Of a stretch of 64,000 nucleotides of DNA, positions 2,970 to 7,499 are shown piece after piece; within the stretch, counting starts at the first letter, position 1; each line of letters starts with the position of its first letter. The notes under the pieces are model-generated. The model was given only the letters and a program-made list of their open reading frames with translations. It was not told the origin of the DNA and made no database searches. Origin of the DNA: an uncultured Anaerotruncus sp. (GTDB lineage: Bacteria; Bacillota; Clostridia; Oscillospirales; CAG-272); the NCBI GenBank assembly GCA_902461815.1, contig CABPZE010000001.1, positions 321,374 through 385,373 of the forward strand. The letters are read 5' to 3'. A program made the translations under genes and the position numbers.

Positions 2970-3539
2970 CTACAGAAACACCTGTCGTGTCTGCTTTCCG
3001 TTCAGCGCATCTTTTACCGTTGTTTCAAGAAGAGAAAAATCCGCGACAAGTGAATGAGGCTTGCGCACCGGGTCGTCCTGCCTCATAGGAACAAAATACA
3101 CGCATTTCTTTGAGATCAGTGCGGCAATATTCCTGAAGTTCGCCGACATAGCATCGTTTGTCGCCAAAGCAATAACCAATGGGCGGTCGCATCTGAGATG
3201 TGCTTTTGCAGCCATTGTCACCGATGTATCTGTAATTCCAAGTGCCAGCTTGGCAAGAGTGTTCCCTGTGCAGGGGCAGATGATCATTAAATCAAGCGGC
3301 TCGCTCGGTCCCAGCGGTTCTGCGTCTACAATTGACTTAACGGCATCTCGTCCGCAGAGCTTCTCGGCACGGCTGACGGTATCCTTCGCATTACCAAAGC
3401 GCGTGTCAATTGTAGCTACGTGCTCACTGATTATCGGCACGATCTCCCACTCCGGATTTTTTTCCTTCAAATGCATCAACGCTTCAAGTGATTTTCCTAT
3501 TGTGCAAAAAGAGCCGCACAAAGCATATCCGACTTTCAT
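2970..3539 (-). CDS. spoVFB: Dipicolinate synthase subunit B (flavoprotein family)
   Basis: 189 aa beginning 'MKVGYALCGSFCT…', with 'ICPCTGNTLAKLA…'. The start overlaps the subunit A stop in an ATGA junction. Confidence 0.85.
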   Translation of the reverse strand: MKVGYALCGSFCTIGKSLEALMHLKEKNPEWEIVPIISEHVATIDTRFGNAKDTVSRAEKLCGRDAVKSIVDAEPLGPSEPLDLMIICPCTGNTLAKLALGITDTSVTMAAKAHLRCDRPLVIALATNDAMSANFRNIAALISKKCVYFVPMRQDDPVRKPHSLVADFSLLETTVKDALNGKQTRQVFL

Positions 3540-4435
3540 TCTCCGATTATTCCCTCGCTTTCAAGATAAGACAGCACTGTTTCCCCTATAATTACACCGG
3601 ATGTGACCGGGGCATATTTTCCGGGCAGAGACAGCGCCCATATTGCATTGAGTCCCAGTTTATTTGCCGCGTCAAAATCCACTCCGCCCGGAACTGAGGC
3701 AAGGTCAATGATTACAGTTTCGGGACTTATCTGATGCAATATATCCCCAGACAGAAGCCTTGCGGGTATTGTATTTATTATCAGATCATATCCGTGTGTC
3801 AGACTTACCATACCAAGCAACGGCTTATCCGGATTTATGTGCATCGGGCGCATACCGCATATCTGCGCACGTGCAAGTTCGCTTTTGCTCCTTGCGGCGA
3901 CCGTTACCGCCGCGCCCATTGATCTCAGCAAACCGGCGGTAGCTGAACCGACGCGACCATATCCAAGCACCGCCGCACGGCAGCCGTTGACAGTACATTC
4001 AAGCTCACGCATTGCAATGCACACCGCTCCCTCTGCCGTTGGGAGCGCGTTTTTGATCTTCAGCTCTTCCGAGTCATAATAATCGTATATCTTTCTTCCC
4101 TTTTCATCTGCCGCCTTGCGGAAAAAATCGGGTAGTCTGCCGCCTAATATCGGCGCGTCGCCGACATCAAGAAGCGCCGACAGCTTAAGCCGGCATTCCG
4201 GAGCAAGCGGACAATTCACACGCACGCCGTCAAATGACGCCGGAAGCGGAAGAATGATCGCAGAAGCCTCATTCAAAGCCGAAAGCCAGTCGTCGCACCT
4301 GACCGCTCCTCCAAGCTCACTGCGTGTGTCAAGCCCCCACACAGCGCACTCAAGTCCGCTGTCCGACAAAAAACGTGCTGCCGACGACTGACGCAGATCC
4401 CCGCCGAGCAGCGCTGCTTTAATTCGGTAATTCAT
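3536..4435 (-). CDS. spoVFA: Dipicolinate synthase subunit A
   Basis: Rossmann-type 'VLGYGRVGSATA' and overall DpaA-like sequence. The ORF track starts at 4486, but the internal ATG (MNYRIKAALLGGD…) at 4435 is the more typical N-terminus. The start is uncertain. Confidence 0.8.
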   Translation of the reverse strand: MNYRIKAALLGGDLRQSSAARFLSDSGLECAVWGLDTRSELGGAVRCDDWLSALNEASAIILPLPASFDGVRVNCPLAPECRLKLSALLDVGDAPILGGRLPDFFRKAADEKGRKIYDYYDSEELKIKNALPTAEGAVCIAMRELECTVNGCRAAVLGYGRVGSATAGLLRSMGAAVTVAARSKSELARAQICGMRPMHINPDKPLLGMVSLTHGYDLIINTIPARLLSGDILHQISPETVIIDLASVPGGVDFDAANKLGLNAIWALSLPGKYAPVTSGVIIGETVLSYLESEGIIGE

Positions 4436-4617
4436 CGTTGCCAATACCTTAATAATGTTTTGATTGCGGAGCCGATTCAAAGACATCCGCTGGTACAGAA
4501 TATGAAAAAAAGCCCGGTTTGGTGTCAGATAGCGATCAAATACATTATCGCCAAATACGTCTTATGCAATTTCCGAACACTAAAATTGCGTAATCACGAT
4601 TTTTTTCAAAAAAAGCA

Positions 4618-4646
4618 TTGACATATTACCTCACTTGTGATAAAAT
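4618..4646 (+). promoter_or_regulatory. Sigma-A-type promoter of the met leader/metQNI operon
   Basis: TTGACA (4618-4623), a 17-nt spacer, then TAAAAT (4641-4646), preceded by TG at 4638-4639 (extended -10). Confidence 0.6.
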
Positions 4647-4689
4647 ACAAAACAATAAGTAAGAATCATCGGAAGAAAGGAGAAGCTCC

Positions 4690-4800
4690 ATGCACAATGA
4701 TATTTTTGCCGTTGTCGATATGATGATGCCGATGTGCATGCTCTCCATGCGCATGTTTTGTCGCGCCCTTAGTTCCGATGTGCAGCCTTCCGGGGTCTGA
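4690..4800 (+). CDS. Putative 36-aa Met-rich leader peptide (MHNDIFAVVDMMMPMCMLSMRMFCRALSSDVQPSGV)
   Basis: AAAGGAG RBS at 4676-4682, 7 nt before the ATG at 4690. The ORF has 8 ATG codons, 7 of them within 4720-4755, and stops at TGA 4798-4800. It lies between the promoter and the terminator upstream of metQ. It is below the 60-aa cut-off of the ORF track. Confidence 0.5.
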   Translation: MHNDIFAVVDMMMPMCMLSMRMFCRALSSDVQPSGV

Positions 4801-4829
4801 TATATGGGTCTTACCCACGATGTCAAAAA

Positions 4830-4862
4830 ACGGGAACGCCATCGGCGCTCCCGTTTTATTTT
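4830..4862 (+). terminator. Intrinsic terminator/attenuator in the metQNI leader
   Basis: ACGGGAACGCC (4830-4840) pairs with GGCGCTCCCGT (4844-4854) with one mismatch, followed by TTTTATTTT. It sits 30 nt upstream of the metQ ATG and before its RBS. Confidence 0.7.
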
Positions 4863-4892
4863 ATAAAAACACTCAAACAAAAGGAGTCTGTC

Positions 4893-5765
4893 ATGAAAAA
4901 AACCGTTTCTCTTCTGCTCGCACTTACTCTTGCACTTTTTGCACTCACGTCTCTCGCATCCTGCTCCGGCAAAGGATTTGAGATAGCCGTACCGAACGAT
5001 ACCACCAACGAAGCACGTGCACTGCTTCTGCTTGAGGCTCAGGGTATTATCAAGCTTAAAGAAGGAGTCGGTATGACTGCAACTGTCCGTGACATTGTTG
5101 ATAATCCTTACAATGTCAGCATAAAGGAGGTTGAAGCCGCTCAGATACCCAATATTCTCAAGGACGTAGACTATGCCGTTATCAACTCAAACTATGCAAT
5201 TGACAGCGGTCTTAAGCCGGAAACCGACGCGCTTGCCATCGAAGATAAAGCCTCCGAGGCATGCCTGCGCTACGCAAATATTCTTGCCGTTAAGTCCGGA
5301 AACGAAAATTCCCCCAAGATACTTGCTCTTAAAGCCGCGCTTGAGAGCCAGGCTGTTGCCGACTACATTCAGAAGACCTATGCCGGCAGCGTTATCAGCA
5401 CAGTAGCAACCCCCGGTGACGGTTATGACGCAAATGTGGACTACAATGCGCTTAAGGGCACGACCATCAAGGTAGGCGCGACCCCCAATCCCCATGCCGA
5501 GATCCTCAAAAATGTTGTAAAAGGCATTCTTGAAGCCAAAGGAATCACTCTTGAAATTACTGAATTTACCGATTACGTGATCCCCAACAATGCCGTTGAA
5601 AGCGGCGAGATCGACGCCAACTACTTCCAGCATCTCCCCTACCTTGAGAGCTTCAACAACGAAAAGAACACACACATTGTCTCCGTAGCTTCGATCCACG
5701 TTGAACCTATGGGTCTTTACGGCGGCAAGCAGTCCTCTCTCGACTCACTGAAAAATTCCAAGTAA
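4893..5765 (+). CDS. metQ: Methionine ABC transporter substrate-binding lipoprotein (NlpA/MetQ family)
   Basis: Signal peptide with lipobox 'LASC', NlpA-family sequence, AAGGAG RBS, and immediately followed by metN and metI. Confidence 0.9.
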   Translation: MKKTVSLLLALTLALFALTSLASCSGKGFEIAVPNDTTNEARALLLLEAQGIIKLKEGVGMTATVRDIVDNPYNVSIKEVEAAQIPNILKDVDYAVINSNYAIDSGLKPETDALAIEDKASEACLRYANILAVKSGNENSPKILALKAALESQAVADYIQKTYAGSVISTVATPGDGYDANVDYNALKGTTIKVGATPNPHAEILKNVVKGILEAKGITLEITEFTDYVIPNNAVESGEIDANYFQHLPYLESFNNEKNTHIVSVASIHVEPMGLYGGKQSSLDSLKNSK

Positions 5766-5773
5766 GATCCGGA

Positions 5774-6790
5774 ATGATTGAACTGAGGCATCTTTCCAAG
5801 ACCTTTCCGGGAGCTGACGGCGATGTTGAAGCGTTGCACGATATTTCCCTCAAAGTAAATGACGGAGATATTTTCGGAATCATCGGCGTAAGCGGAGCAG
5901 GAAAAAGCACGCTTGTGCGTTGTATTAATCTGCTTGAACGTCCCACCGAGGGTGAGGTGTTCATAAACGGTAAAAATGTTACCGCCATGACCCCTCAGGA
6001 GCTTCGCGCCCTACGCCGCAAGGTCACAATGATATTTCAGGGCTTTAATCTGCTGATGCAGCGCACCTGTCTTTCCAATATATGCTTTCCGCTTGAGCTT
6101 GCAGGTGTAAAGCGCGCCGACGCACGTCGGCGCGCTTCCGAGCTGCTATCTGTTGTCGGACTTCCGGATAAGGCAAACGCATATCCTGCACAGCTGTCCG
6201 GCGGTCAGCAGCAGCGTATTGCCATAGCACGCGCGCTTGCTACCGATCCCGAGGTTCTGCTCTGCGACGAAGCCACAAGCGCCCTTGATCCCACAACTAC
6301 GCATTCAATTCTTGAGCTGATTCGCGACATTAACAACAAACTCGGAATAACGGTAATTATTATCACCCACCAAATGAGTATAGTCGAGGAAATATGCCGT
6401 AATGTCGCCATACTTGACGGCGGGCGTGTGGTTGAAACCGGAGCTGTATCTGAGGTGTTTTCAAATCCGTCTTCCGACGCGGCACGCAGGCTTGTTTTCC
6501 CTGACGGAGGAAGCCAATTGCTGAAGCTCGTTAAGGGAGAGCGCCGAATACGTGTAGTATTTGACGGAGCGCTTGCAGCAGGCACGCCCATAATTGCTCG
6601 CATGGCAATAGAAAAAGGCATCGCGGCAAACATTCTCGGTGCCTCTACACGATGCATCGGTGAAAAGGTCTACGGAAATATGCTTCTCGGCATTTCCGGC
6701 GGCGATTCTGAGGTTAAGGAAGCTACAGAATACCTGTGCAGCATGGAAAACGTAACCGTGCGTGAAGTCAGCGAAAGGACGGAAAGCTGA
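5774..6790 (+). CDS. metN: Methionine ABC transporter ATP-binding protein with C-terminal NIL domain
   Basis: Walker A 'GVSGAGKST', signature 'LSGGQQQR' and Walker B 'LLCDEATSALD'. The C-terminal ~100 aa resemble a NIL regulatory domain. Confidence 0.92.
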   Translation: MIELRHLSKTFPGADGDVEALHDISLKVNDGDIFGIIGVSGAGKSTLVRCINLLERPTEGEVFINGKNVTAMTPQELRALRRKVTMIFQGFNLLMQRTCLSNICFPLELAGVKRADARRRASELLSVVGLPDKANAYPAQLSGGQQQRIAIARALATDPEVLLCDEATSALDPTTTHSILELIRDINNKLGITVIIITHQMSIVEEICRNVAILDGGRVVETGAVSEVFSNPSSDAARRLVFPDGGSQLLKLVKGERRIRVVFDGALAAGTPIIARMAIEKGIAANILGASTRCIGEKVYGNMLLGISGGDSEVKEATEYLCSMENVTVREVSERTES

Positions 6791-6791
6791 A

Positions 6792-7499
6792 ATGGGACAG
6801 TTGTTTTCTTCTGAAGCATGGACCGAGGCTCTTGATATAATAAAGACCGAATTTCCTATGGCTGTATGGGAGACCATATATGTCACATTGCTTTCAACGG
6901 TTTTTGCGATAATACTCGGACTTCCGCTCGGCGTTCTGCTGGTCGTCGGGCAAAAAAACGGTATTCTTCCCCTCCCGAATTGGATTATGACGACGCTTGA
7001 CGTTGTAATCAACCTGCTTCGTTCGATACCGTTCCTTATCCTGATGATCCTTGTATTTCCGCTGACACGTCTTATAACCGGAACAACAATAGGAACACCC
7101 GCAAGCATTGTACCGCTTGTTATTGCGGCATTTCCCTTTGTGGCACGTCTTGTCGAAGGAAGTTTGCGGGAGCTGAATCCCAACATAATCGAGGCTGCAC
7201 AGAGCATGGGAGCAACTCCTATGCAGATAATATGCAAGGTAATGATTCCGGAAAGCATACCAAGCCTGATCTCAAACGCGACCATAGCCGTTACAACCAT
7301 ACTTGGTTATTCGGCAATGAGCGGAATTATCGGCGGCGGCGGTCTTGGCAAAATAGCGATCAATTACGGTTGGTACCGTTATCGCTATATTGTTATGATC
7401 TTTGCCGTTATCCTGCTTGTCGCTCTGGTTCAGATAATTCAGACTGTGGGAAATAAGCTCGCAACACACTCGGATAAAAGAATAAAAAACAAAAACTGA
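6792..7499 (+). CDS. metI: Methionine ABC transporter permease
   Basis: Polytopic permease with an EAA-like loop ('IEAAQSMGATPMQII'). I prefer the ATG at 6792 (MGQLFS…), just after the metN stop. The track ORF begins at 6762 inside metN. Confidence 0.9.
   Translation: MGQLFSSEAWTEALDIIKTEFPMAVWETIYVTLLSTVFAIILGLPLGVLLVVGQKNGILPLPNWIMTTLDVVINLLRSIPFLILMILVFPLTRLITGTTIGTPASIVPLVIAAFPFVARLVEGSLRELNPNIIEAAQSMGATPMQIICKVMIPESIPSLISNATIAVTTILGYSAMSGIIGGGGLGKIAINYGWYRYRYIVMIFAVILLVALVQIIQTVGNKLATHSDKRIKNKN

Follow-up and report, generated by a model that had tools for sequence, protein, structure and literature searches.

A conserved methionine-codon leader upstream of metQNI in Clostridia: a candidate ribosome-mediated transcription attenuator

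The metQNI leader

We analysed a stretch of 64,000 nucleotides (nt) from an uncultured Anaerotruncus sp. (contig CABPZE010000001.1), referred to here as the window, in which a short open reading frame (ORF) dense in methionine codons and an intrinsic terminator precede metQ-metN-metI (4893..7499, +), the genes of a methionine importer. Leader coordinates are counted from position 1 of the window. The features of the leader are listed below; the numbering of the segments and the functions given to them are those of the attenuation model set out later.

4618..4646, + strand: sigma-70-type promoter, with -35 TTGACA (4618-4623), a 17-nt spacer and an extended -10 TGaTAAAAT (4638-4646)
4667..4686, + strand: segment 1, the 5' untranslated region and Shine-Dalgarno (SD) region, with CAUCGGAA (4667-4674), AAGG (4677-4680) and GC (4685-4686); pairs with segment 2a
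4676-4682, + strand: leader SD, AAAGGAG, 7 nt 5' of the ATG at 4690
4690..4800, + strand: leader ORF of 36 codons plus UGA (4798-4800), with SD and in-frame ATG, encoding MHNDIFAVVDMMMPMCMLSMRMFCRALSSDVQPSGV
4720..4761, + strand: putative regulatory run of codons, M M M P M C M L S M R M F C, of which 7 are for Met and 2 for Cys; proposed stall site
4732..4754, + strand: hairpin within the Met run, AUGUGCAUG/CAUGCGCAU followed by UUUUG, -11.5 kcal/mol
4763..4780, + strand: segment 2a, in the ORF tail, with GC (4763-4764), CCCUU (4766-4770) and UUCCGAUG (4773-4780); pairs with segment 1
4785..4793, + strand: segment 2b, putative antiterminator 5' strand, GC.UUCC.G; pairs with 4831-4839, and would be covered by a ribosome on the stop codon
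4798..4825, + strand: stop-codon hairpin, UGAUAU.UGGGU...ACCCA..AUGUCA, -9.9 kcal/mol; inner part of the putative composite antiterminator
4828..4862, + strand: intrinsic terminator, with 5' arm 4828-4840, loop AUC, 3' arm 4844-4856 and U tract 4854-4857 plus 4859-4862

The metQ SD, and then the metQ ATG at 4893, stand 3' of the leader terminator. The promoter matches 11 of 12 consensus positions, has the TG of the extended -10, and is expected to start transcription near 4653; orthologous leaders have equivalent TTGACA...TATAAT-like promoters at the same distance. Among the twelve codons of 4720-4755, seven are ATG and one is TGC, and the two Cys codons of the run lie at 4735 and 4759 (the second at 4759-4761). 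This is the sole + strand site in the 64 kb with more than three in-frame ATG codons per 12 codons (it has 7, and all 12-codon stretches scoring 4-6 overlap it), which argues that the run is not due to chance. The original prediction for this locus had described a promoter, an SD, a 36-codon ORF and a terminator in that order, and an ORF in which seven of twelve consecutive codons are ATG and two further codons Cys; all four elements are found in their predicted places, and the codon count agrees.

The whole leader folds more stably than shuffled sequences (z -2.8). The hairpin inside the run is possibly an RNA polymerase pause hairpin that would let the ribosome catch up, or it may be a mere by-product of the CAUG palindromes.

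Conservation of the leader family

The leader was compared across 80 loci encoding MetQ relatives, taken from species-representative genomes. The 28 closest loci, in which MetQ is 58-69% identical, come from Oscillospiraceae, Acutalibacteraceae and similar metagenome-assembled genomes of Clostridia, and in 24 of these an SD precedes a small ORF that has 6-7 Met per 12 codons as well as Cys codons and is followed, 11-50 nt past the leader stop, by an intrinsic terminator of -17 to -29 kcal/mol. Outside the Met run the leader peptides diverge. Two more distant loci carry the same device (L037 and L055), the second of them with the gene order metN-metI-metQ and a MetQ of canonical type. By this comparison, which the original prediction had named as a test, a small ORF with its SD and Met run is kept in the orthologous leaders while the rest of the peptide changes.

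All 29 unique related leaders that have upstream sequence (L020 is cut) show a GGAG-type SD 6-9 nt 5' of an in-frame ATG. Across 30 unique leaders, frame 0 of the ORF holds 233 of the 257 ATG triplets that are not starts (91%), and the 12-codon run windows of the family consist of 56% ATG and 15% TGC or TGT codons. Two relatives belong to the window's own sub-lineage. The ORFs of L082 and of the window differ in a single base: C4787T in L082 converts GCCUUCC to GCUUUCC, the family consensus. L127, which is 64% identical overall, has quite different N-terminal codons and nearly the same Met run, and its tail from 4772 on (UUCCGAUGUGCAGCCUUCCGGGGU) is nucleotide-identical to that of the window.

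A peptide profile built from 19 leader peptides, with a 43-amino-acid member as the first sequence, was compared with metagenomes and matched 143 small-protein clusters from the gut, all of which have the core MMMxMCMxxMCM and none of which is named beyond 'hypothetical protein'. The peptide of one cluster (P0069) equals that of the window bar one residue. In seven genomic contexts the leader is followed by metQ-metN-metI and preceded by unrelated genes (one of the seven, L081, ends before the downstream gene, and one context is cut off), and in three contexts it is followed by a Cys_Met_Meta_PP (metY-like) gene of 427-429 codons. Behind the metY-like gene of L097, one of these three, come a PALP (cysK-like) gene and the gene of an Rrf2 regulator. 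These metY-like targets indicate that the leader element defines a small Met/Cys regulon that extends beyond control of the transporter.

The bare codon pattern ATGATG-N6-ATGTGCATG-N6-ATG was also scanned over metagenome contigs and found in at least 120 stretches. Among the 120 matches listed, about 96 are such ORFs immediately upstream of one of the two transporter genes (metQ in about 60 cases, metN in about 35), and the 120 peptides have medians of 7 Met and of 9 Met plus Cys per 12 residues.

Riboswitch and T-box searches

At the gathering score no Rfam family, be it tRNA, riboswitch or any other, was found anywhere in the 64-kb window. A permissive Rfam scan (E<=10) of 4480-4960 gave nothing credible, with no S-adenosylmethionine (SAM) riboswitch family (SAM-I to SAM-VI, SAM/SAH) and no T-box (RF00230); its chance-level matches were to a small nucleolar RNA, to CRISPR-DR and, on the wrong strand, to Termite-leu. 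The original prediction, in which no S-box core or T-box could be made out in the leader, thus agrees with Rfam at both thresholds.

This negative result is meaningful because the same search detects a T-box (RF00230, 103.5 bits) at 2554-2821 of L024, where it stands before the orthologous metQ in place of the Met-run ORF. In the specifier loop of this T-box an AUG lies beside the GAA, in a GAA-A-AUG-G register that is ambiguous by one base and can be read as AUG or AAU. The same operon is therefore controlled through tRNA charging by another sensor in a sister lineage. Three other loci with close metQ orthologues (L019, L025 and L026) have neither a Met-run ORF nor an Rfam match within the fetched flank.

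RNA structures of the leader

The terminator stem is G+C-rich, with a folding energy of -17.4 kcal/mol, and its bases 4831-4839 double as the 3' strand of the putative antiterminator. In a 17-sequence alignment this helix (3:4) is 95.8% paired with compensatory changes at 9 of 14 pairs, values reached by 0 of 500 shuffles; CGGG/CCCG in the window, for example, corresponds to GGGG/CCCC in L127. The GC-rich hairpin and U-tract that had been recognised before the metQ ribosome-binding site are thus supported as a terminator by covariation. The inner stem of the stop-codon hairpin shows a compensatory change as well, from GGGU/ACCC in the window to GGAU/AUCC in L127, and other sub-families have an analogous CGGCUU/AAGCCG hairpin across the leader stop codon. 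A natural variant bears on what is selected here: relative to L010 and L012, the leaders of L011 and L013 have a 1-nt deletion (TTTG to TTG; L011 2561-2740) that shifts the leader stop 9 nt upstream and drops the C-terminal residues LTA, with the CGGCUU...AAGCCG hairpin and the terminator unaltered. Since the hairpin is kept while the C-terminus of the peptide is altered, the C-terminus is not selected as peptide.

Folding gives a competing structure (2:3) if the RNA begins directly after a ribosome that has stalled on the last Met codon and stops where the terminator 5' arm ends. In such truncated RNAs part of the ORF tail, rich in pyrimidines, is paired to the terminator 5' arm and encloses the stop-codon hairpin, an arrangement that recurs across leaders. 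For the window, this composite antiterminator (4785-4793 with 4831-4839, around the hairpin 4798-4825) has an energy of -17.9 kcal/mol, against -17.4 kcal/mol for the terminator. The family antiterminator core, GCUUUCC with GGAAGGU, is paired in 94% of cells, and it is the only consensus helix that RNAalifold reports for RNAs truncated before the 3' arm. The Leu codon at the antiterminator 5' strand is CTT in 18 of 19 leaders versus a background of 17%, which points to an RNA-level constraint on this strand.

The third helix (1:2) joins the SD region to the ORF tail. In the window the duplex has an energy of -19.1 kcal/mol and is also present in the full-length minimum free energy (MFE) fold. 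Across the family the SD and spacer region is complementary to the leader's own ORF tail, with pairing partners that change by lineage:

Window: CAUCGGAA (4667-4674) with UUCCGAUG (4773-4780)
L004: GGAAAGCUGA with UCAGCUUUCC
L010: GGAAAGCAAC with GUUGCUUUCC
L018: GAAAAUCAG with CUGAUUUUC
L090: GAGAAAACAGA with UCUGUUUUCUC

A swap test over 61 unique leaders gives a mean z of -1.07, with 33% of the leaders in the best 5%. In a MAFFT alignment of 25 leaders the covariation score of the helix is 0.182, versus 0.107 in shuffled alignments (reached by 0 of 500), and 6 of 10 core pairs change on both sides. In most relatives the 1:2 helix and the antiterminator share the same tail segment, which gives a classical three-way competition. 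There, the 1:2 helix would serve as the anti-antiterminator of a 1:2 / 2:3 / 3:4 scheme and close the leader SD on untranslated RNA.

A model for control by tRNA-Met charging

With a probability of about 80%, we read this leader as a ribosome-mediated leader-peptide transcription attenuator that couples the metQNI importer to the supply of charged elongator tRNA-Met; the charging of tRNA-Cys is probably read as well. The core of the original prediction, a methionine-keyed, ribosome-mediated attenuator instead of an S-box or T-box, is supported by the conservation of the leader, the covarying terminator, the competing structure and the Rfam negatives.

According to this model, transcription would begin at about 4653, and a ribosome would load on the strong SD and translate the 36-codon leader. 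When charged Met-tRNA is plentiful, the ribosome would reach the UGA at 4798-4800, cover 4785-4793 and melt the stop-codon hairpin; the terminator 5' arm would then pair with the 3' arm (4828-4856 plus the U tract), and transcription would end before metQ. When Met-tRNA (or Cys-tRNA) is scarce, the ribosome would be expected to stall within 4720-4761, with its leading edge upstream of about 4775. In this stalled state 4785-4793, the stop-codon hairpin and 4831-4839 would fold into the composite antiterminator, completed before the terminator 3' arm exists, and the polymerase would read through into metQNI. The predicted sign of the response is thus more importer when methionine is short. A steric alternative would need no antiterminator, the terminator being blocked by a ribosome on the leader stop codon. 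As the principal mechanism it was rejected on two counts: its sign is wrong, and the distance from stop to terminator is 18-50 nt in most leaders.

Folding before the terminator is complete speaks for the model. In the window the terminator 5' arm is sequestered with a probability of 0.68 when the tail is free and of 0.34 with a ribosome on the stop codon, and in 13 of 16 leaders sequestration is higher with one ribosome stalled and another queued on the SD than with a ribosome at the stop. We infer an antiterminator function that is well supported by geometry, energy and conservation, short of proof.

Several results weigh against this interpretation. The antiterminator helix has no compensatory changes, only one-sided U-A/U-G changes. 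The swap test, in which a leader's own ORF tail and those of other leaders were set against the terminator 5' arm, was null (mean z -0.27), and for most leaders a mononucleotide shuffle test of the antiterminator fell short of significance; tails rich in pyrimidines pair promiscuously with arms rich in purines. At equilibrium the terminator probability stays at about 0.99 in the window and in most relatives whether a ribosome mask covers the stop or the first, the middle or the last Met codon, and the model therefore depends on kinetic, co-transcriptional folding. The mutually exclusive structure that the original prediction proposed to look for accordingly shows only in RNA truncated before the 3' arm; the full-length RNA at equilibrium always gives the terminator, even with a mask for the stalled ribosome. 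The 1:2 helix raises further difficulties. In the window it (4763-4780) adjoins the antiterminator strand (4785-4793) on its 5' side without overlap, and the untranslated RNA is therefore also predicted to form the antiterminator (0.68), unlike the classical default-off arrangement. A stalled ribosome leaves segment 1 uncovered, and a queued or initiating second ribosome must be assumed in the relatives. The Cys codons in the run, finally, mean that the signal may not be purely methionine.

The metQNI operon and neighbouring genes

The three genes of the operon under the putative control of the leader are:

4893-5765, + strand: metQ, NlpA/MetQ lipoprotein, circularly permuted (Pfam Lipoprotein_9)
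5774-6790, + strand: metN, ATP-binding cassette (ABC) ATPase with NIL domain (Pfam ABC_tran and NIL)
6762-7499, + strand: metI, permease (Pfam BPD_transp_1), whose true start may be ATG 6792

The permutation of MetQ is evident from blastp against the MetQ of L055: residues 27-168 correspond to canonical 127-268, whereas canonical 30-125 is matched by residues 190-286. Pfam matches the protein in two stretches. The permuted type accounts for most of the leader-linked metQ genes among the metagenome matches listed.

Divergent from the leader, on the minus strand, lie the genes for dipicolinate synthase subunits A and B (2970-4486; DpaA_N and Flavoprotein), which indicate a spore-forming Firmicute. 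A gene for a heavy-metal-type P-type ATPase (1044-2942, +) lies further upstream; the idea drawn from it, that the leader encodes a metal-binding peptide, was rejected since the ATPase neighbour is not conserved. The minus strand of the leader itself carries a 58-codon His-rich ORF (4666-4842), in which 7 of 12 codons are for His (HAHGEHAHRHHHI) and whose ATG follows an SD-like GGGAG at a distance of 7 nt. It was rejected as the mirror image of the ATG run (CAT = His), and its context is not conserved, the minus-strand neighbour dpaA being specific to this lineage.

Alternative explanations

The element might be a leader-peptide attenuator that is not specific for methionine and responds instead to cysteine or general sulfur starvation, or to translation that slows down in general, as antibiotic-responsive leaders do. 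The structural outcome would be the same for any block of elongation within the ORF, Cys codons make up 15% of the run windows, and in one sub-family the target is a metY-like gene with genes for a cysK-like protein and an Rrf2 regulator behind it. Met codons nevertheless dominate the run windows (56%; median 7 of 12), the regulated genes are Met-specific (MetQ, and MetN with its NIL domain), and the T-box that replaces the leader in L024 has AUG beside its specifier-loop GAA, with the one-base ambiguity of register noted above. We regard this broader alternative as unlikely.

It is improbable that the leader acts as a structured untranslated RNA, for instance one that binds a protein or a new riboswitch for SAM or methionine, in which the AUG repeats are structural and the ORF incidental. 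A strong SD and an in-frame ATG occur in 29 of 29 leaders and 91% of ATG triplets fall in one frame; the nucleotides between the Met codons vary freely, and the N-terminal part diverges completely with frame and run kept. The stability of the leader fold relative to shuffles (z -2.8), the hairpin made by the CAUG palindromes of the run and the conservation of parts of the tail at the RNA level would all suit such an RNA, and an undescribed riboswitch is compatible with the absence from Rfam. There is, however, no conserved structure resembling a ligand pocket, and the conserved helices are just those that an attenuator needs.

Met- and Cys-rich motifs can bind metals, and a functional Met/Cys-rich micropeptide (a metal binder, redox buffer or methionine store), co-expressed with the transporter past a hairpin that is a partial terminator, would account for the conservation of the MMMxMCMxxMCM core at the peptide level in 143 clusters and would suit the P-type ATPase gene at 1044-2942. 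We consider this very improbable. The peptide is poorly conserved outside the run, its C-terminus is altered in L011 and L013 with the RNA hairpin kept, and the conservation of the tail is at the codon and nucleotide level; moreover, a strong terminator always stands between the ORF and the operon, and the upstream neighbours vary by genome whereas the downstream gene always serves Met transport or biosynthesis.

Almost no weight attaches to the last reading, that of a chance ORF beside an ordinary terminator or of a mirror of the minus-strand ORF 4666-4842: ATG reversed is indeed CAT (His) and that ORF has its 7 His in 12 codons and its GGGAG 7 nt before ATG, but the + strand ORF is conserved in more than 140 clusters and always before met genes, the minus-strand neighbour (here dpaA) is different in every other lineage, and promoter, SD and U tract fit the + strand, so that on comparative data this reading is already refuted.

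A second small ORF in relatives

Sixteen of the 30 unique leaders have a second small ORF, likewise preceded by an SD, 3' of the leader terminator, between it and the structural gene; a seventeenth leader, L023, has the characteristic CGAATG motif without a recognisable SD-preceded ORF. The loci that bear CGAATG are L001, L003, L008, L009, L015, L017, L018, L020, L021, L023, L027, L028, L037, L083, L089, L092 and L096-L099. The window lacks the second ORF, with 36 nt from the end of the terminator stem at 4856 to the metQ ATG. The CGAATG is invariant and usually stands within CGAATGTG; the Arg codon is always CGA, followed by Met and then by UGN, which is a stop, Cys or Trp codon. Example peptides are MKNLFEQLVRANFRFGRM and MNTTRFLISSNLYSKRMWL, both ending at a stop codon, and MLRLRKRMCPRDTED, which continues; a typical ending is ...LVRANFRFGRM followed by a stop. 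In several loci the leader and the second small ORF stand before a metY-like (O-acetylhomoserine sulfhydrylase-like) gene (L089 2501-2815, L097 365-1969, L098 1117-2717, L096 and L099). The peptide of metL in Streptomyces lividans, for comparison, ends ...CRRMCAF (PMC8079986).

In MFE folds the 3' part of the second ORF pairs with the SD or spacer of the downstream gene (L001, L015, L028, L089, L097, L098, L009, L018 and L083). The second ORF may attenuate translation in response to one Met codon, or may encode an arrest peptide. A tentative reading, which we think has some plausibility and is more probably wrong than right, joins the two ORFs into a two-stage sulfur-amino-acid sensor. In the first stage the Met/Cys leader would sense how far both tRNA-Met and tRNA-Cys are charged, and most lineages would need a second, queued ribosome on the SD to keep the anti-antiterminator open; in the second, found in about half of the relatives and lost in the window, the ORF with CGA-AUG-UGN would act as a single-Met-codon translational attenuator or as a nascent-peptide or metabolite sensor. 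Together, the two stages would have taken the place of S-box and T-box regulation of the uptake and synthesis of methionine across a large group of Clostridia of the human gut.

Significance and comparison with known systems

S-box riboswitches and T-boxes are the textbook means of control of methionine genes in Firmicutes. To our knowledge, leader-peptide attenuation is rare in this phylum, and for methionine we know of it only as suggested from single genomes of other phyla. The leaders described here form a large, conserved and unannotated family (143 clusters, absent from Rfam) before methionine import and metY-like genes in abundant gut Clostridia. They offer a clean system in which to study how ribosomes sense the charging of elongator tRNA-Met, which is of interest because Met has a single codon and shares it with initiation. 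The leader pattern also gives a rule for annotating such small ORFs and for predicting Met-regulated operons in metagenomes, and the occurrence of a T-box or a leader peptide at the same operon is a natural example of sensors that replace each other.

A search of open-access texts found no publication on this Clostridia Met-leader family, nor, for any Met leader peptide, an experiment on its response to methionine. Met-codon leaders as such have been proposed before, in Campylobacter jejuni (PMC3847290, PMC11955535) and in S. lividans (PMC8079986), and the original prediction went too far in calling attenuation of this kind undescribed.

The layout is that of the trpL, hisL, leuL, thrL, pheL and ilvL attenuators, which likewise have a promoter-proximal ORF, a cluster of cognate codons, a terminator and mutually exclusive 1:2, 2:3 and 3:4 pairings read by ribosome position. 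Unlike these enterobacterial attenuators, the metQNI leader is rich in Met with interleaved Cys codons, has a transporter as its target, and belongs to Clostridia (Oscillospirales-like), in which T-boxes and S-boxes would be expected; its segment 1 is formed by its own SD and spacer rather than by regulatory codons, and the putative antiterminator strand is part of the ORF, shortly before its stop codon. Met T-box and SAM-I (S-box) leaders perform the same task, the induction of Met genes by antitermination when methionine is low. They bind uncharged tRNA or SAM directly, whereas the metQNI leader would use the ribosome as its sensor.

In C. jejuni, a 20-amino-acid MetL with 3 Met residues upstream of metBA was proposed from differential RNA sequencing (Porcelli 2013, PMC3847290). 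Initiation of metL translation was later detected by profiling of translation initiation sites, and CJsORF19 (MMYQMR) was proposed as the leader of the MetQ-type gene Cj0772c (Froschauer 2025, PMC11955535). Like the Clostridia leaders, these are SD-preceded, Met-enriched small ORFs before Met biosynthesis or MetQ-type genes and are proposed attenuators; conserved alternative structures or covariation are not reported for them (PMC3847290, PMC11955535). From the six residues of CJsORF19 and, for MetL, from its description, no relationship to the Clostridia family is detectable.

A metL is also annotated upstream of metNIQ in S. lividans, where it is leaderless, has two internal Met codons and is followed by no typical intrinsic terminator that its authors could find (Droste 2021, PMC8079986). 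The C-terminus of this MetL, CMCRRMCAF, has the alternation of Met and Cys and the R-M-C motif of the Clostridia leaders; it is too short for a test of homology, and we take the likeness as functional. Leader peptides outside Proteobacteria have been predicted for other amino acids and genes, namely for His in Firmicutes (Naville and Gautheret 2010, PMC2965389) and, as Cys-run peptides without recognisable terminators, in Actinobacteria (Seliverstov 2005, PMC1262725). Set beside these systems, the Met/Cys leader family of Clostridia is a new, probable attenuator of a known kind, and it is much better supported than the earlier proposals of Met leaders.

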